Shown here: positions 41,601-59,031 of the stretch, piece by piece | Position numbering within the stretch: the stretch's first letter is position 1 | Layout: every line of letters begins with the position of its first letter | Translations under genes and position numbers: made by a program | Assembly: GCA_944391375.1 (NCBI GenBank) | Contig: CALXTJ010000002.1 | Location: forward strand, 82-64,081 | Direction of reading: 5' to 3' | From: an uncultured Alphaproteobacteria bacterium | GTDB taxonomy: Bacteria; Pseudomonadota; Alphaproteobacteria; RF32; CAG-239 | Length of the DNA stretch: 64,000 bases | Notes under the pieces: generated by a model | The model's database searches: none | What the model saw: the letters and a program-made list of their open reading frames with translations, nothing else | What the model was told of the DNA's origin: nothing

Positions 41601-41622
41601 AATTTAATGAAAGGAAAAAATT

Positions 41623-42171
41623 ATGACAAATAAAAAATATAATCCATTTGCGGATATGTATAACTTCAATGCTAACAGCAGTAACTGGGTACAAAGGTTA
41701 GGGCATAATGCGGACTTTTATAATAATCCGCTGGGTTACAACAGCTCACCCACCCCCAGACCTTATGACAACACAACTGCCTCTGGTATAAATAACAGCT
41801 TTAATATCAATAACCGGCAGCCGTCTTCAAGCGGATTGGAAAGTTACAATCAACCTCAAAAGCAGCAGTATACTAGCCCTAAAGTAAAACCCTTTACTTC
41901 ATGGGATATTGCTTTATCAGCTCTTGAAGGATTTGGAGAGGGAGCAGTCGGCGGAATAGAACGAGATCTAAATACATCATCAAAAGGATTATATGATTTG
42001 GGTAGTGATCTTTTTTTTGACGGAAGCTATGAAAAAAGGCAAAAAGAACTTGAAAAACTGGCTCACGAAGCAAATTTGGATAAATTATACAAATATTCAA
42101 ACTATATTATAGATAACTCAATTGAGTATTTAATAAAATATATGTTTATAAAAAATCTGGGAATTTTCTGA
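41623..42171 (+). CDS. cassette protein A: conserved 48-aa N-terminal module (MTNKKYNPFADMYNFNANSSNWVQRLG...) plus variable C-terminal domain
   Basis: N-terminal 48 aa about 98% identical to the 47657 gene. Residues ~70-105 (SGLESYNQPQK...SALEGFGEG) are shared with the 46159 ORF. Confidence 0.5.
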   Translation: MTNKKYNPFADMYNFNANSSNWVQRLGHNADFYNNPLGYNSSPTPRPYDNTTASGINNSFNINNRQPSSSGLESYNQPQKQQYTSPKVKPFTSWDIALSALEGFGEGAVGGIERDLNTSSKGLYDLGSDLFFDGSYEKRQKELEKLAHEANLDKLYKYSNYIIDNSIEYLIKYMFIKNLGIF

Positions 42172-42249
42172 AATAATTTGCCTTGACATTGATTATCATA
42201 TTTTTTAAATCTGAAGATTATAGTAGGGTAAGTTTTATGGAGAATGTTG

Positions 42250-42783
42250 ATGAAAAAAATTACTGTATCAGATATTAACACCTGTATTTGGGGTGAAAGT
42301 CCGTTATCTTTTTATTTTTCCTTTGATGGAGTTTTTAATCGCTTGCAGTTTTTCGGAAGCATTGCTACATTAAACATTATCCTAAATATTATAAATGCTG
42401 CAGGAATATATATTTTGACGATGTTTGGTTATGCATTATGTCTTTATGCAATGCTGGCAGCAGCTCAAAAGCGTATGCATGATATGAATAGGCAAGGCAG
42501 TGCACTGATTTTGTTACTCTCTGTTAGTTGTATTTTAACAGGGGCTACGGCTCAATTGCATTTTTTGGGAGAAGTTGACATTGCCGAGAATATATACCTC
42601 AAAAACATTTTCGGAATATCGTTTTTAGTATATTTAGTTTTGCAAGCATTTTTATTGTTCATGCCCGGAGCAAAGAAGAAGGATATGAGCAAAAGAAGTC
42701 CGTTATTAAAAAATCCTCCGTTGTATTTTTTAATATGCGTGATAATTTATGCCATAGTCGCCTATTTTATCAGAGATTTATAG
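42250..42783 (+). CDS. DUF805-like inner-membrane protein (candidate cognate/immunity-like gene)
   Basis: YFSFDGVFNRLQFF and YAMLAAAQKRMHDMNRQGS resemble DUF805 motifs. The C-terminal 39 aa are identical to the 44135 protein. Confidence 0.45.
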   Translation: MKKITVSDINTCIWGESPLSFYFSFDGVFNRLQFFGSIATLNIILNIINAAGIYILTMFGYALCLYAMLAAAQKRMHDMNRQGSALILLLSVSCILTGATAQLHFLGEVDIAENIYLKNIFGISFLVYLVLQAFLLFMPGAKKKDMSKRSPLLKNPPLYFLICVIIYAIVAYFIRDL

Positions 42784-42802
42784 CCTGTAAGAGATTACCA
42801 AA

Positions 42803-42834
42803 GAGGGGGTAAAAGCTCCCTCTGTGGTATTTTA
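42803..42834 (+). terminator. terminator hairpin AGAGGGGG-TAAAA-GCTCCCTCT plus T-run (cassette boundary element, copy 1)
   Basis: Repeated at 44690 and 47326. Confidence 0.45.
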
Positions 42835-42845
42835 AAAGCAGACAA

Positions 42846-42970
42846 GGGAGAGGGAAATCGCTCTCAAAACGGACAAAAATGGCTTTTTTAATGACAAAAT
42901 CGGACACTTTCGGACGGTTCCGGACACTTTCGGACAGTTTCGGACAGTTTCGGACACTTTCGGACTGGAC
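42846..42970 (+). repeat. conserved leader (GGGAAATCGCTCTCAAAACGGACAAAAATGGCTTTTTTAATGACAAAAT) plus 7 phased 10-bp tandem units CGGAC(A/G)NTTT
   Basis: Units at 42901-42970: CGGACACTTT, CGGACGGTTC, CGGACACTTT, CGGACAGTTT, CGGACAGTTT, CGGACACTTT, CGGACTGGAC. Confidence 0.7.
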
Positions 42971-42975
42971 ATTTT

Positions 42976-43006
42976 TTGTAAAAAAAGGCTATAAAAAAGC
43001 TATAAT
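42976..43006 (+). promoter_or_regulatory. sigma70-like promoter TTGTAA-N19-TATAAT directly downstream of the 10-bp array
   Basis: Identical copy at 47502-47532. Confidence 0.45.
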
Positions 43007-43147
43007 CGTGAGAAGTTGTGCAAGCTGCTTTAAAAGAAAAGAGTGATGTTAAAAATGGTCGCAATACTATTGACAGTAGTTTAAGTGATAACTATGCTAA
43101 CGAAATAGGACGGCTGTTAGGAACAAAATATCGCAAAGGAGATTGTG

Positions 43148-43273: not shown

Positions 43274-43314
43274 CAGGTCTATAAAATTGTTTGAGTAAAA
43301 CAAGGAGATTGCTG

Positions 43315-44106
43315 ATGAAAAAGGCTCTGTACATTCTTTTAGAGGTCTTGTTTATATTTTTGATTGTAAATAATCGGGAATATTGGCTTGTTGCCGACCA
43401 AGCAGTCCGGGTAAGCGGAGTTTATGTATGGCTTATCTTAACGGCTTATTCTGTCCTTAAAACATACGGAGCCTTTAATTGGAAACTTACCATAAAACCT
43501 GTTTTTGTAATATGTGAACTATTGTTGTTTATATTATCGGGTTGCGTTTTGGAATTATACACCCAAAGTTTGGCAATAACCCCACAAATACACACTGTAT
43601 TTTTACCCTTAATTTTTTATGTTTTGGTATTGGGGACGGGATGGTATATACTGCCTAAAAACAACCCGACAATAAACGATTTTACCACCCATTGTCAACA
43701 GCATTCCAAACGTTATCTTGCTTTGATTTGGTTTTTGGCTGCCTTGTTTATATGTCCGCCGATTTTAACCGTTGTTTACAGCAAGGTATGGTTTGTGCTG
43801 ATACTGATGGGAATATACGTGTTTTTGCCGTATAAAATAAGTACTTTGTTGCTCAAAGATTTATCGTTAAACAAATTCTTTTCATTAGGAAAAGTAATTC
43901 CCGTAATGTTGATAATTTTTGTTCAGATAAATCTGGAAGCGATACTCAGTGGTTTTTGTTTTTACGGATCTTGGTTGGATGCTTATAGGTTGGTAAAATA
44001 CATAATAATTATTGCCGTTTTGCGGTGTATTATTTGCAGCTTAATATTATGCGTATTAGATTACAAACAAACCAAAGGATTATTTATAACAGCCAAAACA
44101 AAATAA
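43315..44106 (+). CDS. hypothetical polytopic membrane protein (cassette gene)
   Basis: About 8 TM helices. RBS AAGGAG 8 nt before ATG 43315. Confidence 0.4.
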   Translation: MKKALYILLEVLFIFLIVNNREYWLVADQAVRVSGVYVWLILTAYSVLKTYGAFNWKLTIKPVFVICELLLFILSGCVLELYTQSLAITPQIHTVFLPLIFYVLVLGTGWYILPKNNPTINDFTTHCQQHSKRYLALIWFLAALFICPPILTVVYSKVWFVLILMGIYVFLPYKISTLLLKDLSLNKFFSLGKVIPVMLIIFVQINLEAILSGFCFYGSWLDAYRLVKYIIIIAVLRCIICSLILCVLDYKQTKGLFITAKTK

Positions 44107-44720: not shown

Positions 44721-44773
44721 TAAAAGCAGACACAATATATAGTAATTTTGTAACAAATATATTATGCACAAGT

Positions 44774-44800
44774 GCCGAAGCTCATAACTTCGGTATTTTT
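44774..44800 (+). terminator. conserved stem-loop GCCGAAG-CTCATAA-CTTCGGT plus T-run, copy 1 (just before RBS)
   Basis: Same element at 47602 and 48959. Confidence 0.45.
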
Positions 44801-44823: not shown

Positions 44824-44940
44824 ATGACAAATAAACTAATTACCATGGCTGGTAAATATGCAGTTAAAAAAGTTCGTAATAAAACCGTTAATAAGGCCAT
44901 GGAAAAAATAAGCGAGCCATATGAAAAATTCAAAAAATAG
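44824..44940 (+). CDS. small ORF (38 aa) starting MTNK..., possible decayed remnant of the conserved N-terminal module
   Basis: First 12 nt (ATGACAAATAAA) identical to the 41623 and 47657 genes. Preceded by the conserved stem-loop plus RBS. Confidence 0.2.
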   Translation: MTNKLITMAGKYAVKKVRNKTVNKAMEKISEPYEKFKK

Positions 44941-45145
44941 GTTTTCGGCATAAAACCTCTAAATGTTGGGGAAAGAGAAACCATAAAATGTTTACAAAAT
45001 CGTCATAATACCTTAGATTATTGTAAGAATATAGGAAACAAGGCAAGGAAAGCTTATCAAAAATCCGTAAAATATAGGTAACTTTTTATTAAAACCAAAA
45101 TACGCATCAACACGGACAATATGCACTGTATAACGGGAAGATAAT

Positions 45146-45406
45146 ATGAAAAAGATAATACTGTTTATAATTGGTCTTATGTGTATACCGCCGATATTGG
45201 GTTATTTGACGACATATGTAAGTAACAATCCGGAATATGAAATATACACCGGATTTTGGGGAGTCCTGTATCTATTTATTTATATTCTTTTTCCTTTGTT
45301 ATATAAAGGGAAAATAAAACAAGCTATGAATAGATATGCTTTTTATGCCTTGTTGTACGGCATTTTGTTTCTGATAATAAATATATTGCTCATTTGCTTT
45401 AATTAA
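45146..45406 (+). CDS. small membrane protein (3 TM), hypothetical
   Basis: ORF with hydrophobic helices. Confidence 0.3.
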   Translation: MKKIILFIIGLMCIPPILGYLTTYVSNNPEYEIYTGFWGVLYLFIYILFPLLYKGKIKQAMNRYAFYALLYGILFLIINILLICFN

Positions 45407-45464
45407 ATATGATGAAGCTGTAAAAAGCAGCAAGATTATAATGGTAAATAGAAAGGATAGAGAA

Positions 45465-45965
45465 ATGAAGAATATAATATTTTTACTGTTGGCAGTACTA
45501 ATTCCGACATTGAGTTTGGCAGCAGAAGAAAAGTCAATATTTACATATGAAGCAGAAAAATGTTCCGGTGAAGAAGATGTATTTATACGAGGTTTAGAGG
45601 AAGAATTAGCTAATTGTAAAATTCAAATGCCGGATAATCCATCTACGGTAGATATGAATGAAACTTATTACAAAGTCGGCGATTGCTCTATTGCTGTAGC
45701 CAATAAACTTTTTGATAGAAATTACAAAAAGTATAATGAGCAGGTAAAACAGGATTTTGATGCACTTGTCAAAGCATTTTATGCAAATGCTCATGATATG
45801 GTTCAACATAGCGATTTTGGACTTTTAAGAGGAGGAACTATGTACAATACGGAAGCCATTGCTACGGGGGCTTTTTGGATTAGAGATGTGGTAAAAGAAT
45901 ACCTTTATCAAGCACGAATGGAATGCGATGATAAGGCAGGATTTGATTCACTGGATATAGAATAG
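45465..45965 (+). CDS. secreted hypothetical protein (signal peptide)
   Basis: MKNIIFLLLAVLIPTLSLAAEEK signal; RBS AGGATAGAGA. Confidence 0.35.
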   Translation: MKNIIFLLLAVLIPTLSLAAEEKSIFTYEAEKCSGEEDVFIRGLEEELANCKIQMPDNPSTVDMNETYYKVGDCSIAVANKLFDRNYKKYNEQVKQDFDALVKAFYANAHDMVQHSDFGLLRGGTMYNTEAIATGAFWIRDVVKEYLYQARMECDDKAGFDSLDIE

Positions 45966-46062: not shown

Positions 46063-46180
46063 GAAATCGCTCTCAAAACGGACAAAAACGGCGTATTTAA
46101 TGACAAAACCGAACAAAATTGAACAATTCTGAACAAAATTAAACAAAAGTGAACATTTTTGAACAAAATTGAACAATCTT
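46063..46180 (+). repeat. conserved leader plus variant phased 10-bp array (GAACAAAATT-type x7)
   Basis: Leader GGAAATCGCTCTCAAAACGGACAAAAACGGCGTATTTAATGACAAAACC. Units at 46111-46180: GAACAAAATT, GAACAATTCT, GAACAAAATT, AAACAAAAGT, GAACATTTTT, GAACAAAATT, GAACAATCTT. Confidence 0.65.
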
Positions 46181-46788
46181 TAAGCGGATTGGAAAGTTAC
46201 AATCAACCTCAAAAGAAGCAGTATACTAACCCTAAAGTAAAACCCTTTACTTCATGGGATATTGCTTTATCAGCTCTTGAAGGATTTGGAGAGGGTATTA
46301 TTGCTGTTCCTAATAGATCTTTTGAAATACTAAAAAACAGTCCTGATCGCCTATCTTCTCTGACAGATACGATGTATAATTTAGTTACAAATTCAAAAAA
46401 TTTATTTAATAATGAGCAAGAATATAAAACTAGAGATCCTGTTTCAACAAATCAATCTACCTTGGAAAATGTTATAAATTATTTGAAACAATACCAATTA
46501 GATAGAGAAATACAACTTTCAGATATTAACAAGCATCAACATATGAGCTGTTTATCAGGAAAGGATGGATTGAGTTTAGGTCTTTTAGGCTTAACAGTGG
46601 GTGCAGGAAAGGAAATAGCGGAGTTTTTCAAAAAATCTTTCAGTCCACAACAAAGAAAAGCATATGGTGGTATTAGCGGTATACTTGCAGACGGTATTAA
46701 AGATATGAATAATAATGTCAAAGGATTTAAACATTCTTATGTTGATGGTAAGGAATGTTATCCACTATTAAAAGAACCATTGCCATAA
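46159..46788 (+). CDS. orphan 5'-truncated cassette C-terminal module (shares a 113-bp junction region with the 41623 gene, then a distinct C-terminus)
   Basis: 46182-46294 is nearly identical to 41829-41943 (...SGLESYNQPQKKQYTNPKVKPFTSWDIALSALEGFGEG). The annotated start lies inside the repeat array, so the N-terminal module is missing. Confidence 0.4.
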   Translation: MNKIEQSLSGLESYNQPQKKQYTNPKVKPFTSWDIALSALEGFGEGIIAVPNRSFEILKNSPDRLSSLTDTMYNLVTNSKNLFNNEQEYKTRDPVSTNQSTLENVINYLKQYQLDREIQLSDINKHQHMSCLSGKDGLSLGLLGLTVGAGKEIAEFFKKSFSPQQRKAYGGISGILADGIKDMNNNVKGFKHSYVDGKECYPLLKEPLP

Positions 46789-46855: not shown

Positions 46856-47314
46856 ATGATCATTAAACTGCAGAATGTTTTGTTTGTATTGGGAGTTACT
46901 TTTGTTATACAACTGCTATATATGTTGTTGATGTTTATAATTTTTTTATTAAATAACAATCTAGCAGTTAATAATGAAGAGCTTTTTTTATTTGTTTTGG
47001 ACAATGTTTTATTTGTATCCATAGCCTTAGGAGCCATTAACCTATTTAGTAATAGGTTGTCTTTATATATTTACGAAAAAAGTATAAAAAAAATACCTAA
47101 TTTACGGTGGTATTGTATGTTCTTTAGCTGGACTGTCATTATCCAAAAATTCATACCCGAATTTGAAATCTTTTATGCTGTTTTAATAAGTTGTATAGTT
47201 GGTGCATTGTGTTATCCTGATCGTACCTGGAAACAAAGAGTTAGATATTCATTGATATTTGTTGCTATTTTATTGATGTATTTCTTGGGAGGTTTTACCG
47301 ATTTTGAAAATTAA
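46856..47314 (+). CDS. small polytopic membrane protein (candidate cognate/immunity-like gene of orphan module)
   Basis: 4 TM helices, immediately downstream of 46159..46788. Confidence 0.35.
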   Translation: MIIKLQNVLFVLGVTFVIQLLYMLLMFIIFLLNNNLAVNNEELFLFVLDNVLFVSIALGAINLFSNRLSLYIYEKSIKKIPNLRWYCMFFSWTVIIQKFIPEFEIFYAVLISCIVGALCYPDRTWKQRVRYSLIFVAILLMYFLGGFTDFEN

Positions 47315-47325: not shown

Positions 47326-47360
47326 AGAGGGAGGATAAAAACTCCCTCTTTAGTGTTTTA
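47326..47360 (+). terminator. cassette boundary terminator hairpin, copy 3
   Basis: AGAGGGAGGATAAAAACTCCCTCT plus TTAGTGTTTT. Confidence 0.45.
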
Positions 47361-47371
47361 AAAGCAGACAA

Positions 47372-47496
47372 GGGATAGGGAAACCGCTCTCAAAGCGGAC
47401 AAAAACGGCGTATTTAATGACAAAATCGGACACTTTCGGACGGTTCCGGACACTTTCGGACATAATCGGACAGTTTCGGACACTTTCGGACTGGAC
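47372..47496 (+). repeat. conserved leader plus 7 phased 10-bp tandem units CGGACNNTTT, copy 3
   Basis: Units at 47427-47496: CGGACACTTT, CGGACGGTTC, CGGACACTTT, CGGACATAAT, CGGACAGTTT, CGGACACTTT, CGGACTGGAC. Confidence 0.7.
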
Positions 47497-47501
47497 ATTT
47501 T

Positions 47502-47532
47502 TTGTAAAAAAAGGCTATAAAAAAGCTATAAT
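47502..47532 (+). promoter_or_regulatory. sigma70-like promoter TTGTAA-N19-TATAAT, copy 2
   Basis: Identical to 42976-43006; lies 5 bp after the array. Confidence 0.45.
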
Positions 47533-47567
47533 CGTGAGAATTTGTGCAAACTACAAAATCTCACGAT
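47531..47567 (+). promoter_or_regulatory. perfect 9-bp inverted repeat ATCGTGAGA-N19-TCTCACGAT overlapping the -10/+1 region (operator-like)
   Basis: Read directly from the sequence. Only the left half-site is present in copy 1 (43005-43013). Confidence 0.4.
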
Positions 47568-47601
47568 TATATTTTAACTTAAACTAAAATTTTAACAACA
47601 A

Positions 47602-47632
47602 ATACCGAAGCTCATAACTTCGGTATTTTTTT
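47602..47632 (+). terminator. conserved stem-loop ATACCGAAG-CTCATAA-CTTCGGTAT plus T7, copy 2 (attenuator/terminator-like, directly before RBS of 47657)
   Basis: Perfect 9-bp stem plus T-run, between the promoter and the gene. Confidence 0.5.
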
Positions 47633-47656
47633 ATTTAAAAGAAAGGAAAATAAATC

Positions 47657-48379
47657 ATGACAAATAAAAAATATAATCCATTTGCGGATATGTATAACTT
47701 CAATGCCAACAGCAGTAACTGGGTGCAAAGGTTAGGATATAATGCGGATTTTTATAATAATCCGCTGGGCTATAACAGCTCTCCCACCCCCAGACCTTAT
47801 AAAATCGCCAGTAATGATATACCAGTGGTAAATAACAATAAAAAAGTTGATTACTCAGCTTATGGAGAGGGTTTTAGTAAAGAATTTATTGATAAGATGC
47901 TTGATGATAAACGTTTCAATAATATCATGAACAGTAGAGTAATAAATAACGAAGGTGGATACGTTAATCATCCTAATGATTTAGGAGGTGAAACAAAATA
48001 TGGGATTACTAGTAGATGGTATCCTAATGAAGATATAAAAAACCTAACAAGAGAAAGGGCTAATGCTATTTTATACAGAGACTATTGGCAAAAAACAAAT
48101 ATTCATCAACTTCCCGATGAATTTGCCGATATTGTTTTTGATGACAGCATTGTTCAAGGACAGCCAACAGCTATTAGAAATTTACAAAAAGCTTTGGGTG
48201 TTAATGATGATGGTATCATCGGTCCCAAAACATTAAAAGCATTTCAGCACCAAAATCACAATATTATACGAACAAAATTTATAAAAAATGTTAATGATGT
48301 TGAAAATGAAAATATAAAGAACAACCCTTCTCAAAAAGTTTTTGAAAAGGGTCATAGAAACAGATTTAACGCTTATTAG
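47657..48379 (+). CDS. cassette protein with conserved N-terminal module plus GH108-like lysozyme domain and PG_binding_3-like domain
   Basis: N-terminal 48 aa shared with 41623. GGYVNHPNDLGGETKYGIT resembles the GH108 signature (EGGYVNDPxDxGGxTxxGIT). C-terminal ...ALGVNDDGIIGPKT resembles a peptidoglycan-binding domain. Confidence 0.6.
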   Translation: MTNKKYNPFADMYNFNANSSNWVQRLGYNADFYNNPLGYNSSPTPRPYKIASNDIPVVNNNKKVDYSAYGEGFSKEFIDKMLDDKRFNNIMNSRVINNEGGYVNHPNDLGGETKYGITSRWYPNEDIKNLTRERANAILYRDYWQKTNIHQLPDEFADIVFDDSIVQGQPTAIRNLQKALGVNDDGIIGPKTLKAFQHQNHNIIRTKFIKNVNDVENENIKNNPSQKVFEKGHRNRFNAY

Positions 48380-48837
48380 TTTCTAGCTAATATTGACCTA
48401 ATTATAGTTGATATATAATTTTTTAGTGCTTCAGTTGTGGCGTATTCGCTATATAAATAAGGTGAAACGCCACAATTATTTTTACGGCAATAGTTAGTTT
48501 CATTATATACAAATAAATAGTTGTCATACATATAATTATCATACTGATTAAGGCGTTCCCTTGCTTCTCTGTCAGATAAATTATAGTATTCTGTTATAAT
48601 TATTTCACCTACATCTTTATAGCAATCTCTGGTTTTATGATGTAAATCAATTAAAAAGTTATAACATTTCATACTCCAAGTTTCAGGGCATGTTGTACTT
48701 TGTTTAGTAAATTCATCAGAACATTTTATAAAATCATCATCTAATTTATTTATAGAGGATGATATTTCAGCACTAACACTGGTTGCAGACATTAAAAAGC
48801 TCAAAAGAGAAATAATGTATATTTTTTTCATAATCAA
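48376..48837 (-). CDS. secreted Cys-rich periplasmic protein, convergent with GH108 gene (candidate immunity protein)
   Basis: Signal peptide MIMKKIYIISLLSFLMSATSVSA, 8 Cys residues, RBS AAGGA. Its stop overlaps the 47657 gene's stop. Confidence 0.4.
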   Translation of the reverse strand: MIMKKIYIISLLSFLMSATSVSAEISSSINKLDDDFIKCSDEFTKQSTTCPETWSMKCYNFLIDLHHKTRDCYKDVGEIIITEYYNLSDREARERLNQYDNYMYDNYLFVYNETNYCRKNNCGVSPYLYSEYATTEALKNYISTIIRSILARN

Positions 48838-48958
48838 TTATCCTTATGCATAAAACCGACGAAGAAAGTTTAGATTTAATCCATAATATAAGCAACAACT
48901 TTTATAGTTAAAGCACAAGAAAATAATATTTTAACTCAAACTAAAATTTTAACAACCA

Positions 48959-48989
48959 ATACCGAAGCTCATAACTTCGGTATTTTTTT
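48959..48989 (+). terminator. conserved stem-loop ATACCGAAG-CTCATAA-CTTCGGTAT plus T-run, copy 3, directly before RBS of portal gene
   Basis: Identical to the element at 47602. Preceded by the shared block TTAACTCAAACTAAAATTTTAACAACCAAT. Confidence 0.5.
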
Positions 48990-49008
48990 ATAATAAGAAA
49001 GGAAAATA

Positions 49009-50787
49009 ATGTTCGCATATACTCTTGAAAAAGAAAGCTTTATGTCAACGGGAAATCCCGATGATAAGCGGGCAGTAGTTCAAGATGTGGTGGATTTATT
49101 CACATCTTGGGATACTGTTCGTACCAAACAAAAAAATATTGCCGATAAGTTGCATTCGGAAATCTATCTGGATGACCGAAAAAAAACTTATGTCCCGGAA
49201 GATGACGAATGGAAATCGGATATCCATCTTAATAAAATCTATTCGTTATTCCAAACACATCAGGCCTACATTTGGGATAATATCTATTCTAATGTGGAAA
49301 ATATGTTTGATGTTGAAGGAATTGATGATCTTTCGGCACAAACGGCTTTGTTGCAAAAACAAAAACTGGTTAATACCTTTTATAATATCGGTATTCAACG
49401 CAAGCTGGATACCGCTATTGAGCATTTAGACAGTGTCGGTGAAATTTGTTTGTTTATCGGTTGGCAAAAAAAATATAAACAAATCCGCCGTCGTTTGGAT
49501 AAATTCAGCTCCTCTGCCGATAAGCCCTTGCTTACTCAAGGCTTGTTCGGGGTGTTTAATCAGGAAATTTATAACGGAGCCGATGTTGAGGCCATCAACC
49601 CGCTCAATTTGGTATTTGACCCCAGGGTTAATCCCGACGATAAGGAAAAATGGGATGCCTGTGGTAAAATTATTAAATCATGGGAAACTTATCAGTCGGT
49701 AGCTTCCAATAAATTGTATAATCTTAAAAAAGAAGAGCTTGATGATTTGCATAAAATGTTAAACTCTCCTTCCAAAGATGAAGATCGTTCGGAAACCGAT
49801 AAAACCGATGATGTGGTTGATAGCGATAGGGTTGAGGTTTTACAATATTGGGGGGATTATGTTACCCCCAAAGGCAATGTTTTAAAAAACTGGCATATCG
49901 TAGTTATCGGTCGTAAATATCTGGCGGTGTTTGAACCTAATCGCTGGGTAATTAACCCGATTATCAATATGGCTTTGTTTAGGGATATCAACAGTAAACG
50001 AGGTATTCCCGAATTATGGTCCATTTACGATATATGTAAGGAACAGGAAAATAAAGTAAACTTACAAAATGATGCTCAATCACTTAACCTAAATCCTCCG
50101 GCCTATGCTCCGGAGGGTTTTTTTAAGGAGGAAAAAGTAAAACTCTTCCCCGGTAAACAAGTGGAATACAAACAGGGTCTTGAAGATCCCGGAGCAATCA
50201 TCAAAATGCAGTTTCCGTTGTTCAGCAATGAAAATATTATTCAGTATTATGACAATACGGCTTCAAGCGTAAGCGGTATTTTTCCCAATATGCAGGGACA
50301 ACAGGAAATAAGCAAAGCCACGGCCACCGAAATAAGCATTAAGGTTCAGGGACAAACCACGCGTTTGGGTAAAACTTTGGATACCATCAAGCAAAATGTT
50401 ATTGTCCCGATGGTGCAAAAAGTTGCCGAACTTGAAGCTAATATGAAATTCGGCGATGAGGTTTTAAAGCTTAACATTTTGGGGTATCCGGTTACCAAAA
50501 CCATTGATGATGTGGTGCGTCAGGGCAATTATGAATATCGTTATACCGATAATACCGGTATTCAGAAAAAACTTAACACCAATCAAACGCTTATTCAGAT
50601 TTTTACGCAAATCTGGAATGATGAAAGCGTCCCCTTAAACAAACTGCAAATTGTTAAAGAAGTACTGCGTAATGCCGGCATAGAAAATACCGAAAAGTTT
50701 TTTCTAAGCCAAAATCAAATTCCGGCAGCCAATCAAAATACAGCGGCTGCCGGTGTCAACAATAATCTTTTACCCGTTCAAAAGTAG
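49009..50787 (+). CDS. putative phage portal (head-to-tail connector) protein
   Basis: 592-aa protein heading a module with scaffold-like and capsid-like genes in podovirus order. Assigned from size, position and composition only. Confidence 0.45.
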   Translation: MFAYTLEKESFMSTGNPDDKRAVVQDVVDLFTSWDTVRTKQKNIADKLHSEIYLDDRKKTYVPEDDEWKSDIHLNKIYSLFQTHQAYIWDNIYSNVENMFDVEGIDDLSAQTALLQKQKLVNTFYNIGIQRKLDTAIEHLDSVGEICLFIGWQKKYKQIRRRLDKFSSSADKPLLTQGLFGVFNQEIYNGADVEAINPLNLVFDPRVNPDDKEKWDACGKIIKSWETYQSVASNKLYNLKKEELDDLHKMLNSPSKDEDRSETDKTDDVVDSDRVEVLQYWGDYVTPKGNVLKNWHIVVIGRKYLAVFEPNRWVINPIINMALFRDINSKRGIPELWSIYDICKEQENKVNLQNDAQSLNLNPPAYAPEGFFKEEKVKLFPGKQVEYKQGLEDPGAIIKMQFPLFSNENIIQYYDNTASSVSGIFPNMQGQQEISKATATEISIKVQGQTTRLGKTLDTIKQNVIVPMVQKVAELEANMKFGDEVLKLNILGYPVTKTIDDVVRQGNYEYRYTDNTGIQKKLNTNQTLIQIFTQIWNDESVPLNKLQIVKEVLRNAGIENTEKFFLSQNQIPAANQNTAAAGVNNNLLPVQK

Positions 50788-50799
50788 AAAGTATTTATC

Positions 50800-51000
50800 G
50801 TGGATTTAATAGAACTTCGTGAACTGATGCGTTCCGAAAAGGGTCGGCTGTTGTTATGCTACCTTACGGATTTTATGGTTGAAGTTTCCACCCGCGGTAA
50901 TGCCAACGCCGAATGGATAAAAGGTATGGGCATGCTTATCAATCATTTAAAAGAAATTGATGAAATATGCCAAAAATTAAATGAAGAAAAAAGGAGATAA
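50800..51000 (+). CDS. small hypothetical phage protein
   Basis: Short ORF between the portal and scaffold genes; GTG start. Confidence 0.2.
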   Translation: MDLIELRELMRSEKGRLLLCYLTDFMVEVSTRGNANAEWIKGMGMLINHLKEIDEICQKLNEEKRR

Positions 51001-51002
51001 AA

Positions 51003-51992
51003 ATGACAATTAAAACTAAATCAACACCTTCACAGCGTTTGACGGATAACTCCTCTGATATATTTGTTGCGGATACCTCTCTAAAAGAGCCTGAAGCAGT
51101 ATATCAAGAGCCCGTAAGCGATGCTATGGAAGCTGATGTTAATGATAAAGCCTTGGAAGATGGCGGTCTTATCTTTGGTAAGTTTAAGACCATGGAAGAG
51201 GCTCAAAAAGGCTATAAAGAGGCGGAACGAGCCATCACGAGAGCCGCCGATTTGGAAAAAGAACTGCAAAACTACCAGTATCTTTCCAAAGCTTATGAAG
51301 AAGATGCCATAGCTAGGCAGAACGGTTATTCCGATCGTTTGGAAATGGCACTTAATCATGATGTAAAGCAACATGAACTTGACAGTTATGCCTTGGCGGC
51401 AAGCCATACATTACCGTATCAGGCTCAGTTGGAAGTTGCTCAATTGATAAATATGTGCCGTCTTGGCGGTACGGAAAAGGAATTCAACCTTTTACGGCAG
51501 TATTTTCCGCCGCAAGTGGTAGCATTGGTTTCCGAAGATGCGGCTTTATACAAAAATTCGCGTCAGGGCGAGTTTGATAATATCCGCAGTAACGATAAAG
51601 CCATTCGTTATGCTCGGAAATTGCATGAATTCCGCAATCAAAACGAGAGTTGGTTTGATTCTCCCTTAAAAGAAGACCTTATAAATCAGGCTCTGGAAGT
51701 CTCGGACGGCAGAGTAGATTTAAACGGGCTTAAAAAAATGGCCGATGCCGTAGTGGAAGAAGCTCTCAAAAAATATCAAACCGGTCAGGATACGGCGTAT
51801 CAAAATGCTCTGATGCAAGACAGTTTGCAAACTCCGGGCAATGATAACACGCGTATCAAAAACAAAAAATGGCTTACCAAGGATGAGTACTACAAACTCA
51901 CTCCGGCACAGGAAGCCGAAAAATATGATTTAATCGTGGAACAGGTTTTGCTTGAAAAACAAGGCAAGTTACCGCGTATGTTAACCAAATAA
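51003..51992 (+). CDS. putative capsid scaffolding/assembly protein
   Basis: Acidic, helix-rich, low-complexity 329-aa protein between portal and capsid. Confidence 0.4.
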   Translation: MTIKTKSTPSQRLTDNSSDIFVADTSLKEPEAVYQEPVSDAMEADVNDKALEDGGLIFGKFKTMEEAQKGYKEAERAITRAADLEKELQNYQYLSKAYEEDAIARQNGYSDRLEMALNHDVKQHELDSYALAASHTLPYQAQLEVAQLINMCRLGGTEKEFNLLRQYFPPQVVALVSEDAALYKNSRQGEFDNIRSNDKAIRYARKLHEFRNQNESWFDSPLKEDLINQALEVSDGRVDLNGLKKMADAVVEEALKKYQTGQDTAYQNALMQDSLQTPGNDNTRIKNKKWLTKDEYYKLTPAQEAEKYDLIVEQVLLEKQGKLPRMLTK

Positions 51993-52016
51993 TTTAATTT
52001 TTGAAAGGAAAAAACT

Positions 52017-52955
52017 ATGTCAACAAATGCAGAAACTTTAAACAGACAATTATCCGCCATTATTCCCGAAGTATGGAGTATGTCTTTAACCAAAGGTTTG
52101 GATAAATCCGGTGTGGGAATGAAGGTAGTTAATCGTATTCACGAAGCCGATACTCACGAATACGGCGATACCGTAAACATCGGTGAATTGGGTGATGTAA
52201 CTATTTCCGATTACTCGGAAGATGTATCCTCAGGCGGTGTAAATTACCAAAGAATTGATGCCAAAAATCAGCAATTAAAGCTTGATCAAAGCAAGGCTTT
52301 CGGTATTTTTGTTTCCGATATCAGCAACAAACAGGGCAACATTAAAGACTTGCAGTCTAAAATTGAAGCCAAAGCCAAAACGGCAATTGATTTGGCCAAA
52401 GATACCTATATTCTTTCGGCATTTTCGGAAATTCCTGAGGAAAACAAACTGGATAACATTACTTTAACTCCTGATAATGCTTATAAGTGCTTGGTATGGT
52501 TGTCTAAGACCTTAAAGAACAATAACGCCGTTCAACTTAAAAACGATCAGGTGTTTAAGTCCAATCAAGCCGGCGGCGATGCCATGCCGTATGTAATAAT
52601 CAATCCGGATGTTGAAGCAATTTTATTGCAATCACCCGATTTTATTCATGCTACCCAAGCCGGCGACAGAGTGTTGCGTGAGGGTTCAATCGGTACCATT
52701 GCCGGATTGGATGTTTTGGTATCCACCAACTTGCCGACAACCGAGAAAAAAGTCAACATTATGGCCGGTATCAATGATGCCATTGCCTTTGTGGGCAATA
52801 TTTCGCATATTGAAGCCATTCGTGATGAAAAATTCTTCGGCACCAATATCCGCGGCTTATATGTTTACGGTAAAAAAGTAGTTTTACCGAAAGCCTTAGC
52901 CGGTATGACGGTAGATGTAAGTGCTGCTGATTCCATTGTGGAAGCTGCAGCTTAA
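52017..52955 (+). CDS. putative major capsid protein
   Basis: 312-aa protein after the scaffold, strong RBS, followed by a strong terminator hairpin. Assigned by position and size. Confidence 0.45.
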   Translation: MSTNAETLNRQLSAIIPEVWSMSLTKGLDKSGVGMKVVNRIHEADTHEYGDTVNIGELGDVTISDYSEDVSSGGVNYQRIDAKNQQLKLDQSKAFGIFVSDISNKQGNIKDLQSKIEAKAKTAIDLAKDTYILSAFSEIPEENKLDNITLTPDNAYKCLVWLSKTLKNNNAVQLKNDQVFKSNQAGGDAMPYVIINPDVEAILLQSPDFIHATQAGDRVLREGSIGTIAGLDVLVSTNLPTTEKKVNIMAGINDAIAFVGNISHIEAIRDEKFFGTNIRGLYVYGKKVVLPKALAGMTVDVSAADSIVEAAA

Positions 52956-52995
52956 CATTAAAATAGAGTCATATAAATCCTTTCGTTATAAAAAA

Positions 52996-53030
52996 CAGAG
53001 GACGCAATGTAAATTGCGTCCTCTGCTGGT
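52996..53030 (+). terminator. intrinsic terminator after capsid gene (CAGAGGACGCAAT-loop-ATTGCGTCCTCTG)
   Basis: 13-bp perfect stem with a weak T-run. Confidence 0.5.
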
Positions 53031-53062
53031 TTAAAGGAAAAATGTTTTGAGGAGAAATAAAA

Positions 53063-53293
53063 ATGGCATCGGAAATTGCAGATAAAGTTTTAGGCAAAAA
53101 GACCGATAACTTTACAAAAAACGATAAATATCTGACCGCCGATTGCATATGGCAGGTTTATAAAACCGGCTGTGGCAATAGCCGCGTCAACGGGTTAATG
53201 GCAGCCGAAATGCTAAGTCCGGAAGGTAAGAAAAAAGCCAGAAGAGGCATTAAAAAAATTACTGACAAAGACTTTGTTTTTGAGCGGCAATAA
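53063..53293 (+). CDS. small hypothetical phage protein
   Basis: ORF with RBS GAGGAG. Confidence 0.25.
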   Translation: MASEIADKVLGKKTDNFTKNDKYLTADCIWQVYKTGCGNSRVNGLMAAEMLSPEGKKKARRGIKKITDKDFVFERQ

Positions 53294-53308
53294 TAAAAAG
53301 GAGGAAAG

Positions 53309-53974
53309 ATGAAAACCTATTTTGATATTATACGCGATGTATCCAATTTAAGATGGTCGGTAGTTGATACCGATCCTTCATCTTTTGCGGAAGTTCAAAA
53401 AGCCGTAAAGTTAGCAATACAACAGGCTAATAGCTATATTTGGGGATTGGATAATTTTCCGTTTAAGGTAAAAAAAGAGGCTTTTAAGATTAACAAAGGG
53501 CAGTCGGCATTACCGGCACCTAAAGGCAGTATTGTTAATATTTGGCTTGATGGTTCCAATACATATTTGGAAGAAATCAGTCAGGAAAAAGCCGATTTTC
53601 TTTCGGGAGAAGAGAAGGGTAAGCCGGTGTGTTTTTGGATAGAATTCGGAGATGATGGCGCCGAAGTGCATTTTTATCCCAAGGCTTCCGAAGACTGCAC
53701 CATGTTAATCCGTTATATAACTAACTGTAAGGCCAGAGCCCAAGACGGCACTTTAAAAGCCAACTTATCGGATATGGACGATGTATTAAACTTGCCTGAC
53801 GACAGTGTGATAGAGGACTTGTTTTTGCATTGTTTAAATACCAAGGCAATGGAGTATTTAATTGCCGATACCAATGATGAAAACTATCAGCCCTATCAGA
53901 AAGAATTTGCGGAAGCTTATTCGTCGTTATTATGTTTTAGCGGGGTTAAGCATAATCCTCGTTTAATAGTTTAG
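53309..53974 (+). CDS. virion structural protein, possibly tail tubular/adaptor-like
   Basis: Size and position match T7 gp11-type proteins; only weak pattern similarity. Confidence 0.3.
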   Translation: MKTYFDIIRDVSNLRWSVVDTDPSSFAEVQKAVKLAIQQANSYIWGLDNFPFKVKKEAFKINKGQSALPAPKGSIVNIWLDGSNTYLEEISQEKADFLSGEEKGKPVCFWIEFGDDGAEVHFYPKASEDCTMLIRYITNCKARAQDGTLKANLSDMDDVLNLPDDSVIEDLFLHCLNTKAMEYLIADTNDENYQPYQKEFAEAYSSLLCFSGVKHNPRLIV

Positions 53975-53984
53975 GGAGGCGGCC

Positions 53985-55574
53985 ATGCTAAACACACTGT
54001 TTATTGATAATTTTCGGGGAATTCGCAAATTTAATCCGGTGGCAGATTTGCTATCAAGCGGAGTGGTTTCGGCCTTAAACTGTCAAAATGTAGAGCTTAC
54101 CAATACCGAACACAGTAAAAATTTAGCCATTTTTACGGCCAAAGGCAACAAAGCGGTTAAAGATATCGGGCAAAAAGTTGTCGGACAGTTTGAAAGTATT
54201 CAAAACGGGACATCTTATTGGTTTATATATGCCACGGACGATACAAGAGGGTATCTTTACACTTTGGGAACCGATAATGAGCTGACGCTTTTAGATGTAA
54301 ATTTATCGGTAAGTGATGATTGTAACGGTATTACCATTGCCCAAGGTTATAACGACTGGTTTGTATTTACCAACGGTGTGGATGATTATTTGGGAGTTTG
54401 TATGTCGCAAGCAGCTCCTGAAGACCGTATTAAATTTTTGAATGCAACCGATGCCGAAGGGCGAGATATCAGAGGCTTAGGGCTTGAAGTTCAGGACGGA
54501 AGATTGGTAACCTTTTGCCAAAATCGGGTTCATTGGTCAGGACAATCCAACATTTTTGACTGGATATCAAGCGATGAAGAGTTGCTTACGGCTCCGGCAT
54601 ATCAGGAGTTTGATCGTGATGTAACGGCCATTACTCTTTACAATGATATGTTGATAGCCTTTACCGATGAGTATTCCACTTATTTTAAGGGCAATCCCGG
54701 AGATGCAAGTACCTTCACCCGAGGCGGAGCTTCTGGCGGAGGGTGTCCGTCGTTTCGTTCGGTAATCAAGTTTGATAACAAGCTTTTTTATTACGATAAC
54801 AAAGCCAAAAATGTTTTTGCTTATTACTTAATGGACAGCGGACAAACGCGTCCGAGTGAAGGGCTTGCCAATAATGTCATTTCTTATTTTGAAGAAATTG
54901 ATGAAAGTAAATTAAATAAAATAGAAATGGTAAGTTATATCCACGGTAATAAAAGTGAGATATGGCTTAAATTTCCCTCAACAGAGAGGAATGTAATTTT
55001 AATTTACGATTATTTGAACGGCGAATGGTGTGAACGTGTTGCTCAAGCCGATATTCACGGATTAAGCCTGATAAAGGGCGGATTATATTCACTGTCCGGA
55101 ACTAAGGTCTTAAAAGAATATGTCGGTTCTACATTTGATGGGGAATATATACCTTCGGAATATAAGACCAACATCATCAACCTGCAAAGCGACAGTAACA
55201 TCAAAGTGCCGAAAATGCCTTTGATTTTAACCTTGGATTTTGACTGTGAAAACGACTTTTATATGGAGTTTATCTACGATGATATGCCTAAAAAAAGCCG
55301 CACATTTCATATTGTTAAAATGATGAAAGGTTACTTGATTTGGGCAAACTCTACAGCAGATGAAAAAGGCGGTCTTTGGAGTTTGGATGCATCAGATGAA
55401 AACGGCGGCATGTGGGTAAGTTCGGATAAAAACACCGTAATGTTTAACTTGGCGGGAGTTTTACCGTTTAAGCAGTTGCAGATACGAATTTTTACCAAAG
55501 ACAGTCCGCAAGAGTTTGCCGTTAAACGGCTGGAATTCAAACGCGTCGGCTTAAAAACCAAAAGCCTGGGTTAA
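53985..55574 (+). CDS. large virion structural protein (tail/nozzle-like)
   Basis: 529-aa protein in the structural gene run. Confidence 0.3.
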   Translation: MLNTLFIDNFRGIRKFNPVADLLSSGVVSALNCQNVELTNTEHSKNLAIFTAKGNKAVKDIGQKVVGQFESIQNGTSYWFIYATDDTRGYLYTLGTDNELTLLDVNLSVSDDCNGITIAQGYNDWFVFTNGVDDYLGVCMSQAAPEDRIKFLNATDAEGRDIRGLGLEVQDGRLVTFCQNRVHWSGQSNIFDWISSDEELLTAPAYQEFDRDVTAITLYNDMLIAFTDEYSTYFKGNPGDASTFTRGGASGGGCPSFRSVIKFDNKLFYYDNKAKNVFAYYLMDSGQTRPSEGLANNVISYFEEIDESKLNKIEMVSYIHGNKSEIWLKFPSTERNVILIYDYLNGEWCERVAQADIHGLSLIKGGLYSLSGTKVLKEYVGSTFDGEYIPSEYKTNIINLQSDSNIKVPKMPLILTLDFDCENDFYMEFIYDDMPKKSRTFHIVKMMKGYLIWANSTADEKGGLWSLDASDENGGMWVSSDKNTVMFNLAGVLPFKQLQIRIFTKDSPQEFAVKRLEFKRVGLKTKSLG

Positions 55575-55597
55575 TTTTAAATAAAGAGGAGGCAATA

Positions 55598-55810
55598 ATG
55601 AAAAAAAAGGCAACCGGCAAAGTAAGTTATCAGCCTTCGGAAAGTTTTGAGCAGTTAAACAAGCTACAAGAAATGGCAATTTCGCAAGAAAATGTAAGTT
55701 TGGCATTAAAAGCGGAAGAGCTCAAAGGCAAGCTTGCCGGATTGTATAGCGATAAAAAAGAGGCTGAAGAAGTTGATACGACGCCTCTTGAGATAAAAAT
55801 CATCAAATAG
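55598..55810 (+). CDS. small hypothetical phage protein
   Basis: ORF with RBS AGGAGG. Confidence 0.25.
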   Translation: MKKKATGKVSYQPSESFEQLNKLQEMAISQENVSLALKAEELKGKLAGLYSDKKEAEEVDTTPLEIKIIK

Positions 55811-55822
55811 GAGGTTGGTAAA

Positions 55823-56224
55823 ATGGTAGTTTTAATAGAAAAAGACAGTCCTTTTTTTGAAAGGCAGAAAGCCAAAGAGCTATTTGAAGCCAATCGGGAA
55901 AATTTGGATGATGAAAACGGGTTTGAGGGCATATTAGCCAACAGCCGTTTTTTTAATGTCTATCAACACGGTTATATCGGCTCCGGGTTTGTATATCAGG
56001 GAGCCGACGATAATCGCAATTATTTGGGTGGATATATGCTGCGAAAACATCATAAAGAAGCGGTGGAGGCCATTAAGCAAATCTGTTCGCTTTTTGATGA
56101 AGTTTACGCCCATACCCGCCATGTAAATGCGGTTATAGCCTTAAAACGAGCAGGTTTTAAGTGGTATGATCGCAACAAAAAATTGTTAGTTAAGAAAAAC
56201 AAAATCAAGAAAGGAGAAAAATAA
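55823..56224 (+). CDS. hypothetical phage protein
   Basis: ORF with RBS GGAGG. Confidence 0.3.
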   Translation: MVVLIEKDSPFFERQKAKELFEANRENLDDENGFEGILANSRFFNVYQHGYIGSGFVYQGADDNRNYLGGYMLRKHHKEAVEAIKQICSLFDEVYAHTRHVNAVIALKRAGFKWYDRNKKLLVKKNKIKKGEK

Positions 56225-56916
56225 TGTCAAGTAATGTAAAAGCCAAACCGCAAACCTTTTCAAGTTCAGGTTTATACGGAACGGCAACCACCAATAAAAA
56301 CGGAACAACTTATAATCCGAGTAATTTTGAAAAACAGCTTGTGGGAATGACCACGCAGTATATTCCGCAGTATTTGCAGCAGCTGGTAAACCCGACATAT
56401 GACAGTGAGGTTTTTAAGGCCCAGACCACGCAAAGGAACAGACTTGCCAATCAAAGCTTTGAAAACAATTTAATAAATCCGCTGTCGCAAAGAGGTTTGA
56501 CCAGAGGTTCAAGCGTTAATCAGATGAGTAACCAGTTTGCCAACAAATTGGCTGATTTGGAGACAGATGCTATGGCCAATGAGGATACGCGTAATGCCAA
56601 TATGTTGAATAACTTGTTTAATTACTATCAAGTGCCATACGGTATAATGATGGGCATGTCCGATTTCAGCAATCAGCAATATCAGAGTGCCGTTCAAAAT
56701 GCCTTAAAACAGAATGAGTTAAATAATAAAGCATTAAAAACTTGGGCAACTTCATTGGGCAATATGTCGGGATTTGGAGCTGGTCAAGGAGACAACTCAT
56801 CCGGCATGGGCTGGGGAGGCTTAGTAGGCACCGGCCTTGGTTATGCACTCGGAGGTCCGGCAGGAGCATCAGTTGGTTCCATATTTGGCAATCAATTGGG
56901 CAATTTGTGGAAATAA
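56224..56916 (+). CDS. Q/N-rich protein with C-terminal glycine-zipper hydrophobic segment (internal virion/membrane-active protein?)
   Basis: C-terminus GWGGLVGTGLGYALGGPAGASVGSIFGNQLG carries a GxxxG repeat pattern. Confidence 0.35.
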   Translation: MSSNVKAKPQTFSSSGLYGTATTNKNGTTYNPSNFEKQLVGMTTQYIPQYLQQLVNPTYDSEVFKAQTTQRNRLANQSFENNLINPLSQRGLTRGSSVNQMSNQFANKLADLETDAMANEDTRNANMLNNLFNYYQVPYGIMMGMSDFSNQQYQSAVQNALKQNELNNKALKTWATSLGNMSGFGAGQGDNSSGMGWGGLVGTGLGYALGGPAGASVGSIFGNQLGNLWK

Positions 56917-56983
56917 CAGTAAAATTAAGAATAAAACTCCGCTTATTAAAAGCGGAGTTTTAAATTTTTAAAGGAGATAAAAA

Positions 56984-58096: not shown

Positions 58097-58099
58097 AGA

Positions 58100-58140
58100 T
58101 TATGCCGCATTTTAGCTAATGCGGCATAAGTTTTGTAAAA
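58100..58140 (+). terminator. intrinsic terminator (TTATGCCGCATT-loop-AATGCGGCATAA plus GTTTT)
   Basis: 12-bp perfect stem. Confidence 0.55.
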
Positions 58141-58151
58141 AGGAGAGAAAA

Positions 58152-58876: not shown

Positions 58877-59031
58877 TAAAGAAAAAAGAACATAGTTGTA
58901 AATATCAGTTACGAAGAGAAATTATTCATAAACTAAGTAGGTGGCAATTATTTTGGCTATGTGTGTTGTTTTTGGTGGTAATGGGAATAATCGGAGTTTT
59001 TGCCCCGAGTGCCATAATCGGAATTTTATAG
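58873..59031 (+). CDS. small TM peptide (52 aa) overlapping endolysin stop; possible lysis accessory (spanin/antiholin-like)
   Basis: MIKKKEHSCKYQLRREIIHKLSRWQLFWLCVLFLVVMGIIGVFAPSAIIGIL; below the ORF-track cutoff. Confidence 0.2.
   Translation: MIKKKEHSCKYQLRREIIHKLSRWQLFWLCVLFLVVMGIIGVFAPSAIIGIL

Follow-up and report, generated by a model that had tools for sequence, protein, structure and literature searches.

We analysed 64,000 nucleotides (nt) of DNA from an uncultured alphaproteobacterium (contig CALXTJ010000002.1; hereafter the window), focusing on a gene for a GH108-type muramidase and on the gene for a small exported protein, its partner, which meets it tail to tail from the opposite strand. 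The two genes encode a probable bacterial weapon and its antidote, swapped between strains as a matched pair. Judging from the sequences, we consider it rather likely that the enzyme is a muramidase toxin acting in the periplasm, that the partner is its cognate exported periplasmic immunity protein, and that the N-terminal residues of the enzyme (N-module) are a trafficking element. The initial annotation of the locus had likewise proposed an effector/immunity pair rather than the endolysin of a phage-like element; this proposal is supported by the pairing of the genes across loci, orphan partners, replacement of both alleles together, the N-modules, and absence from phages.

The GH108 protein matched Pfam PF05838 at residues 94-166 (E=1.6e-21; 77 bits against a curated cut-off of 21.2 bits) and PHROG 315 (endolysin) at residues 83-238 (E=1.6e-41), while the NCBIfam 'holin-associated muramidase' matched weakly (70 bits against a cut-off of 240 bits). 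The EGGY motif corresponds to N98-E99-G-G-Y102, and the catalytic E99 was invariant among 36 homologues. A PDB sequence search with the protein matched 2IKB, 7DNP, 6V3Z, and 6V40 (NMB1012, Brucella SagA, Sen1395, and TtsA). In an AlphaFold2 (AF2) model with 36 homologues as input, the predicted local distance difference test score (pLDDT) was >90 for residues 61-240 and <50 for residues 1-60, which are disordered; no separate folded domain was present between the N-module and the enzyme. Foldseek aligned the model with Brucella SagA (7DNP) over 161 columns (E=1.5e-7; TM-score 0.75, target-normalised; root-mean-square deviation 2.6 A) and also matched 2IKB and 6V40, with TtsA among the matches. 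Both the PF05838 match and the SagA fold bear out the GH108 assignment of the initial annotation. Its assignment of the C-terminal part to PG_binding_3 stood less firmly: PF09374 scored 23.8 bits, below its cut-off of 24.6, and matched at residues 172-200 over profile positions 2-35 of 76 only, although relatives of the protein exceeded that threshold and the C-lobe is folded as in SagA. Because residues 61-240 were confidently modelled and aligned with SagA, the two-lobe architecture is complete despite the sub-threshold score. No hydrophobic segment, signal peptide, or transmembrane segment was found in the GH108 protein (maximum 19-residue hydropathy, 0.35). We predict that the 240-amino-acid (aa) protein is an active-type GH108 N-acetylmuramidase.

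The open reading frame (ORF) of the partner extends to 48376-48837 (minus strand) with a TTG start, but the ATG at 48831, which has an AAGGA ribosome-binding site ahead of it and gives a 151-aa product, is the more likely start. An identical 151-aa gene call was obtained on an independent metagenome contig (L001). The N-terminus carries a hydrophobic stretch (19-residue Kyte-Doolittle window, 1.49) and a cleavage-type site between VSA and E, a signal peptide of the classical kind (MKKIYIISLLSFLMSATSVSA, then E). The partner has six cysteines (C37, C48, C56, C70, C115, and C120), not the eight first annotated; all are in the mature part and conserved across the family. The mature protein (~130 residues) was modelled by AF2 as a helical bundle (pLDDT 86.9). 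The most conserved stretch, Y-C115-x-x-N-N-C120-G-V-S-P-Y-L-Y-S-E-Y, forms a Cys-bracketed loop in the AF2 model; C115, N118, N119, C120, and G121 were invariant in the family alignment (A1), residues 114-130 were nearly so, and distant partners have CHPRCG (L039) or CKGRCG (L036) at the same place.

Searches for relatives of the partner gave 14 matches in a word search and 50 representatives among 1.84 billion proteins. No consistent relative of the family was found in Pfam (14 members searched), PHROGs, NCBIfam, PADLOC, or PDB sequences, and the fold had no Foldseek match in the PDB or BFVD at E<0.6. The partner was also not found in IMG/VR, in 50,697 INPHARED phage records, or in 72,556 PLSDB plasmids. 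The family is new, all-alpha, and without known relatives. The T4_Spackle match (E=0.36, in one of 14 family members) is at chance level. The resemblance of CxxNNCG to the CKPHDC loop of Ivy (PMC3660660) is a mechanistic hint only; the folds differ. Some partners (L025, L027, and L028, of 246-248 aa; P0139, P0158, and P0159) carry an extra N-terminal Cys-rich domain or a tandem-duplicated partner domain.

The GH108-partner module was found at ~60 loci in gut and rumen metagenomes and in metagenome-assembled genomes (MAGs) of Alphaproteobacteria, with neighbours that were otherwise unrelated. Genomes searched with the partner profile yielded 20 loci, each in an uncultured gut or rumen Alphaproteobacteria MAG, and a convergent, abutting GH108 gene or its remnant was present in 17/17 of those with sequence past the 3' end of the partner. 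The same pairing occurs in L002 (two tandem pairs), L003, and L004. Reciprocally, metagenomes were searched with the GH108 profile (80 loci). Where the GH108 protein was at least 55% identical and there was room downstream, a convergent ORF positive with the hidden Markov model (HMM) of the partner followed in all 11 cases. Gut and rumen GH108 proteins of 39-48% identity were mostly accompanied by a convergent signal-peptide protein of 150-174 aa with 4-7 Cys ('YHGIDID' type), and some of these matched the partner HMM weakly. Soil and marine GH108 genes among the metagenome loci had no convergent ORF. Clustering of the ORFs of 25 loci revealed nothing shared besides GH108 and the partner. In the window, the stop codons overlap in TTAG at 48376-48379 (TAG on the plus strand, TAA on the minus strand), as expected from the initial description of a convergent signal-peptide gene overlapping the GH108 stop; of the 19 distinct pairs that belong to the window's type, 17 have such a 4-nt tail-to-tail overlap. 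At 5271-6674 of L003, a second and more divergent GH108 gene, in whose 213-aa product no EGGY was found, is paired convergently with the gene for another signal-peptide protein (240 aa, 7 Cys), which hints that 'GH108 plus convergent secreted protein' may be a wider pattern.

At three loci (L006, L014, and L018), an intact partner stands beside only the last 30-68 codons of GH108, and at two others (L017 and L021) in-frame stops interrupt GH108 while the partner is intact. An intact partner beside a degraded GH108 gene, seen at these five loci, is the pattern of putative orphan immunity genes. The minus strand carries a terminator-like hairpin (48321-48355) for the partner transcript, with a 16-bp stem and a T-rich tail (minimum free energy -17.4 kcal/mol, z=-4.4). 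Such a terminator could account for the retention of the GH108 3' end at orphan loci, but the idea is a weak one, as the hairpin, though strong in the window, is only patchily conserved at other loci.

Enzyme and partner co-vary. Enzymes ending in GWLNRxNxY were paired with partners ending in ITYIKNQ (2/2), and enzymes ending in FEKGHxNRFxxY with partners whose tail is [AS][RH]x, for instance SISARN or SVSAHN, in 17/17 distinct pairs. The pairwise distances of enzyme and partner were correlated (r=0.87; 0/5000 Mantel permutations), the partner diverging 1.3-fold faster. We rejected this correlation as evidence of physical interaction because the genes overlap.

The clearest evidence for matching came from another strain of the window's species (L105), which has the same locus ahead of the same portal gene. 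In blastn, L105 was 89.8% identical to the window at 47711-48069 (end of the N-module and catalytic lobe) and 95.7% identical from 48764, inside the signal-peptide codons of the partner, through the structural genes, while no nucleotide similarity was detectable between these tracts (48070-48763). In translation, the enzymes are ~90% identical up to 'YRD' and ~25% beyond it, and the partners share 20 of 23 signal-peptide residues but are barely alignable in the mature part. In L105, the C-lobe is of the P0002 type and the partner is a 163-aa protein of the 'YHGIDID' type, with the signal peptide retained. A tract that swaps the C-lobe and the mature partner and spares the catalytic lobe and the export signal is what would be expected of a matched specificity pair. 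Since both parts were exchanged together between strains, specificity would lie between the mature partner and the enzyme C-lobe (residues ~144-240).

Table 1 Features of the GH108-partner locus and its surroundings in the window.
Feature	Position	Strand	Description
GH108 gene	47657-48379	+	240 aa; present as ORF
N-module of the GH108 protein	47657-47836	+	aa 1-60; Asn/Tyr/Pro-rich, predicted disordered
GH108 muramidase core and PG_binding_3-like C-lobe	47837-48379	+	aa 61-240; EGGY at 47951-47962
Partner gene	48376-48831	-	151 aa; signal peptide aa 1-21 (48769-48831), then mature all-alpha part with 6 conserved Cys
Partner motif C115-R-K-N-N-C120-G121	48469-48489	-	disulfide-type loop between helices 3 and 4
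Strain-variable block	48070-48763	both	GH108 residues ~144-240 (+) plus mature partner (-), replaced as a unit in L105
Terminator-like hairpin for the partner transcript	48321-48355	-	within the GH108 3' coding end (codons NPSQKVFEKGH)
5' leader repeat	47566-47649	+	hairpin ATACCGAAGCTCATAACTTCGGTAT (47602-47626), T-run, ribosome-binding site AAAGGAAAA; directly before the GH108 start codon
Leader repeat copy	48923-49006	+	88% identical to 47566-47649, hairpin copy exact; directly before the portal gene
Second N-module copy	41623-41766	+	heads cassette ORF 41623-42171
Portal gene	49009-50787	+	PHROG 332/1216; begins 630 nt past the GH108 stop

The initial annotation had described the enzyme as fused to the N-module of neighbouring cassettes, and this was confirmed: the 152 nt from 47649 to 47800 match 41615-41766 at 93% identity, and residues 1-48 are common with ORF 41623-42171, far beyond chance. 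The C-terminus of that ORF is another one, rich in Gly, and the next gene encodes a DUF805 membrane protein (42244-42783). The window N-module also heads P0101 and P0117, both with lysozyme-like C-termini, that of P0117 matching the Pesticin family weakly (E=0.006). Strain variants of the GH108 protein measure 240, 277, 314, or 331 aa, and the N-module is doubled in variants of 277-331 aa, the longest included. In many loci GH108 is headed by an alternative N-module, MDFFGxYxSPFGY...YPQYG..FWG. In L002 and L026 this module also begins Gly-rich proteins of 287 aa, and the gene after each of these encodes a 115-aa membrane protein. The phage-head domain MuF (PF04233) replaces the N-module in L003, L038, L056, L072, and L073 and is present in the relatives P0063, P0109, and P0119; Pfam detected no MuF domain (PF04233 or PF06152) in the window protein. 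A homology search with the N-module returned only four short proteins, and PHROG and Pfam scans of the toxins bearing it gave no trafficking clue. The stretch 'NDIPVV', which reads DTPMV in P0001, is similar to a TonB box only when judged by eye, and P0101 and P0117 do not conserve it. To judge from their distribution, N-modules are interchangeable, one type being the phage-head MuF domain, and modular N-termini on differing C-termini are the anatomy of a putative polymorphic toxin locus (cf. PMC3482391).

The content of cassettes between the BOF gene and GH108 varies among strains. Cassette 46159-46788, followed by a membrane ORF (46856-47314), is absent together with that ORF from strains L105 and L108, a presence/absence polymorphism, and the cassette region of L110 is shorter still than in these two. 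In the window, a small basic ORF (44824-45081; MTNKLIT...) is broken by an in-frame stop at codon 38; in L105 and L107-L109 it encodes 85 aa. It is followed by 45146-45406, which encodes a membrane protein of 86 aa, and by 45441-45965, whose 174-aa product has a signal peptide and 4 Cys and is possibly another periplasmic immunity protein; homologues of this product (42-70% identity) were found within ~1 kb of GH108-partner pairs in L014, L061-L066, L070, L071, L088, L089, and L096. The L002 prophage contains, at 6500-12800 directly before terS/terL, an array of five or six cassettes with one common N-module: two Gly-rich toxin-like proteins of 285-287 aa, each with a 115-aa membrane protein, two GH108-partner pairs, and N-module remnants.

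An 84-nt leader precedes the degenerate MTNK... ORF (44824), GH108, and the portal gene. Its hairpin, terminator-like in a consensus scan, has three copies in the window (44772-44796, 47602-47626, and 48959-48983; repeat family D5), against none expected in shuffled sequences. In L002, which is an unrelated prophage, a different hairpin leader (6495-6511, 8684-8704, and 12791-12809) stands ahead of the toxin cassettes and terS. In both, a hairpin and a T-run lie ~25 nt ahead of the start codon, whether of a cassette or of the leading packaging or head gene, which is the portal gene in the window and terS in L002. Recurrence of the hairpins before cassettes and late genes suggests a co-regulation of the antitermination type. 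Since the leader is common to the cassettes and the first late gene, the cassettes look like insertions into the leader of a late/structural operon, with which they are probably expressed. Tandem arrays of period 10 occur at 42900-42965 and 47426-47491 (TCGGACACTT, 6.6 copies each) and at 46103-46176 (ACAAAAyTGA, 7.4 copies); the first two lie within a 225-nt repeat, one copy of which (42802-43026) precedes ORF 43291-44106 and the other (47328-47552) GH108. Such helically phased repeats could be regulator binding sites.

The portal gene opens a phage-like cluster (49009-60171), podovirus-like in character. Its products are the portal, a likely scaffold, the major capsid protein (PHROG 267), proteins of the tail and fibres, a protein of 96 aa that has one transmembrane-like hydrophobic segment (ORF 58119-58409), and a GH24 lysozyme (ORF 58406-58876; PF00959, E=1.6e-14). 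The last two had been annotated initially as holin and endolysin; the GH24 identity was confirmed, and the holin is plausible and has no family match. No recognisable terminase, integrase, or replication gene was found in the cluster. It is bordered by recJ-side chromosomal genes on one side and by UDP-glucose dehydrogenase on the other, and at least seven further metagenome contigs (L105 and L107-L112) share both the arrangement and its chromosomal site beside recJ. Between the window and L105, the ratio of non-synonymous to synonymous substitution rates in the structural genes was 0.02-0.14, indicating strong purifying selection. The cluster could be a domesticated particle resembling a gene transfer agent or a satellite-like remnant. 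The module is tied to phages because its leader is common with the portal gene and because relatives carry MuF domains, and we regard 'effector versus phage' as a false dichotomy: a phage-borne polymorphic toxin describes the module better.

We propose the following mechanism. The GH108 enzyme would cut peptidoglycan and thus be harmful only in a periplasm. The disordered residues 1-60 would serve as an exchangeable trafficking module outside the enzyme proper. The partner would be made constitutively from its own promoter, exported by the Sec pathway, and reside as a disulfide-bonded helical protein in the periplasm of the producer, where it would neutralise matching muramidase arriving from sister cells, particles, or leakage. 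It may recognise the C-lobe or the substrate groove of the enzyme, with the invariant C-x-x-N-N-C-G loop as the best candidate for a contact or plug element, although its inhibitory role is one that we only infer. Delivery is most likely linked to the adjacent phage-like cluster, and release or packaging by a phage-like particle is plausible. In one option, the toxin would be co-expressed with the late/structural operon, released through holin/GH24 lysis, and taken up through the disordered N-module, in the manner of a bacteriocin; in another, it would be packaged into the particle, as proposed for MuF toxins. A bolder extension, which we think quite unlikely, is that the terminase-less cluster at 49.0-60.2 kb is a domesticated particle carrying protein cargo instead of, or besides, DNA, a 'toxin-transfer agent'. 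N-modules (MuF in relatives) would then target GH108 and membrane-acting toxins into the particle, which would deliver them to the periplasm of rival strains, while the convergent partner would keep kin immune.

Several points weigh against the toxin-immunity reading. The convergent arrangement is atypical: effector and immunity genes of type VI secretion systems (T6SS) and of contact-dependent inhibition normally run in the same direction. The 64-kb window also encodes no secretion system. Residues 1-60 had no match in Pfam, PHROG, or NCBIfam, and thus no known secretion or trafficking domain. The partner showed no similarity to the known lysozyme inhibitors Ivy, MliC/PliC, PliI, PliG, LprI/DUF1311, Spackle, and PhiA, and its proposed function is drawn from context alone. 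In L004 (10882-11350), the partner is frameshifted between the signal peptide and the mature part while GH108 is intact; the carrier may not be killed by its toxin, or else the frameshift is an assembly error. Finally, co-inheritance through the overlap would by itself yield the co-variation and the Mantel correlation, and linkage is here inseparable from interaction.

The main rival, which we consider unlikely, holds that the enzyme is a virion-associated entry lysin, with the N-module or MuF as a packaging or attachment signal, and that the partner excludes superinfection by related particles in the manner of Spackle; the partner would still be a specific periplasmic inhibitor, its purpose being phage exclusion rather than warfare. 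The position of GH108 directly upstream of the portal gene under a common leader fits this view, as do the L002 pairs immediately before terS/terL with the same leader logic, the MuF-GH108 fusions, one of which (L072) lies near portal and TerL genes, and a separate GH24 endolysin that already serves lysis from within. Spackle of phage T4, likewise, is periplasmic, small, and alpha-helical, contains a disulfide, and specifically inhibits a single phage-borne lysozyme, gp5, but not the endolysin (PMC7677548). But Spackle, of 75 aa in its mature form, has no detectable homology with the partner, targets a GH24 lysozyme, and is not encoded tail to tail with its target. Moreover, most other GH108-partner loci had no phage-like gene within 6-10 kb in tblastn with the window's and L002's phage proteins only, none was present in the precomputed Pfam annotation of L004, and the partner is missing from the phage collections mentioned above. 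The pairs also stand in arrays with membrane-targeting toxin-like cassettes and their membrane-protein partners, which have no role in entry.

That the enzyme is an ordinary or second endolysin of the phage-like element, and the partner a periplasmic regulator of lysis timing or an anti-lysis factor, seems very improbable. GH108 is a common endolysin family (PHROG 315), found in 299 phage records, and the gene has a phage-like neighbourhood, but none of these phage proteins covered at least 80% of the query, their matches starting at about residues 84-95, and polymorphic N-extensions of 60-331 aa are not a feature of them. No holin gene is adjacent, the neighbours of GH108 being the partner and the portal gene, and the element has its own lysis pair (58119-58876) 10 kb away. 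The initial annotation had argued from this separate GH24 endolysin; the fact is correct, although the logic is weak. Tandem duplication of the pairs in L002, the occurrence of the module at loci where the tblastn and Pfam checks above detected no phage genes, and its replacement between strains whose structural genes are 96% identical are also at odds with an endolysin.

We give an equally small chance to a housekeeping role like that of SagA/PhiA or TtsA, in which an autolysin opens the wall for an envelope machine or for export and is restrained by a periplasmic inhibitor. Brucella SagA, the best structural match, is an alphaproteobacterial GH108 muramidase reported with a proposed periplasmic inhibitor, PhiA (PMC8334348); TtsA is among the matches, and L003 has a VirB8 gene 3 kb away from its pairs. 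Unlike the window protein, SagA is anchored in the membrane by its C-terminus and serves a T4SS (type IV secretion system); SagA/PhiA are not polymorphic. PhiA is an MliC/PliC-type beta-barrel that failed to inhibit SagA in vitro (PMC8334348), and beta structure predominates in Ivy, MliC, and the Pli proteins (PMC7677548), in contrast to the all-alpha partner. Polymorphism, tandem duplication, degradation in some genomes, and fusion to MuF would be unexpected of a housekeeping autolysin, and no machine genes are consistently nearby. Least probable of all is a functionally unrelated secreted partner that travels with the muramidase only through the gene overlap, which does enforce co-inheritance by itself: the overlap has been maintained over 40-60% protein divergence in dozens of genomic contexts, orphan loci retain the partner with only the 3' end of the enzyme gene, and the breakpoints in L105 swap exactly the mature partner and the C-lobe.

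The general logic of a toxin and its immunity protein is already known, and both halves of the toxin-immunity reading have precedents, namely muramidase toxins with periplasmic immunity (pesticin/Pim, PMC3390615; Tse3/Tsi3, PMC3792639) and phage-borne polymorphic toxins (PMC5576092, PMC3482391, and PMC11699363). Pesticin of Yersinia pestis is a peptidoglycan-cleaving toxin of phage-lysozyme origin with ~40-60 unstructured N-terminal residues ahead of the enzyme, and it has a dedicated periplasmic immunity protein, Pim, specific for the activity domain (PMC3390615); the relative P0117 carries the window N-module on the domain with the weak Pesticin-family match. Several features set the window pair apart from pesticin/Pim: the enzyme has a GH108 fold instead of one like T4 lysozyme, neither a receptor-binding domain nor a recognisable TonB box was identified in it, the partner shares no sequence relationship with Pim, and the genes are chromosomal and phage-associated instead of being on a bacteriocin plasmid. 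The disordered N-terminal region is also a likeness to colicin-like bacteriocins. As with MuF toxins, a putative polymorphic toxin with an adjacent putative immunity gene stands beside portal or terminase genes of prophages or their remnants (PMC3482391, PMC5576092), and MuF occurs in close relatives, but the window protein itself lacks MuF and is encoded upstream, not downstream, of the portal gene. In Tse3/Tsi3 (T6SS) and X-Tfe/X-Tfi (T4SS), too, a signal-less enzyme attacks the periplasmic peptidoglycan of the target and a Sec-exported immunity protein protects kin (PMC3792639, PMC10933484); these differ in the folds of enzyme and immunity protein, no T6SS or T4SS genes or targeting domains were found in the window, and its pair is convergent and overlapping, not bicistronic.

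GH108 as a polymorphic toxin domain, the partner family, the conserved convergent overlapping architecture, and C-lobe specificity as seen in a natural allele swap appear to be undescribed. The main text of the MuF survey by Jamet contains none of the words 'lysozyme', 'peptidoglycan', or 'muramidase' (PMC5576092), and in the polymorphic-toxin catalogue of Zhang 'muramidase' is absent and 'lysozyme' occurs once, in the description of the Tox-Glucosaminidase fold (PMC3482391). If our reading is true, GH108 muramidases would join the catalogue of interbacterial toxin domains, and the partner would found a new family of periplasmic immunity or muramidase-inhibitor proteins, a new class of inhibitor fold with a conserved disulfide loop. 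The natural allele swap would be a ready-made set of cognate and non-cognate pairs and would map specificity to the C-terminal lobe. The physical and regulatory tie to a conserved phage-like cluster would offer a tractable case for the long-proposed delivery of polymorphic toxins by phage heads or phage lysis, in a system from uncultured gut and rumen Alphaproteobacteria whose competitive biology is barely explored.

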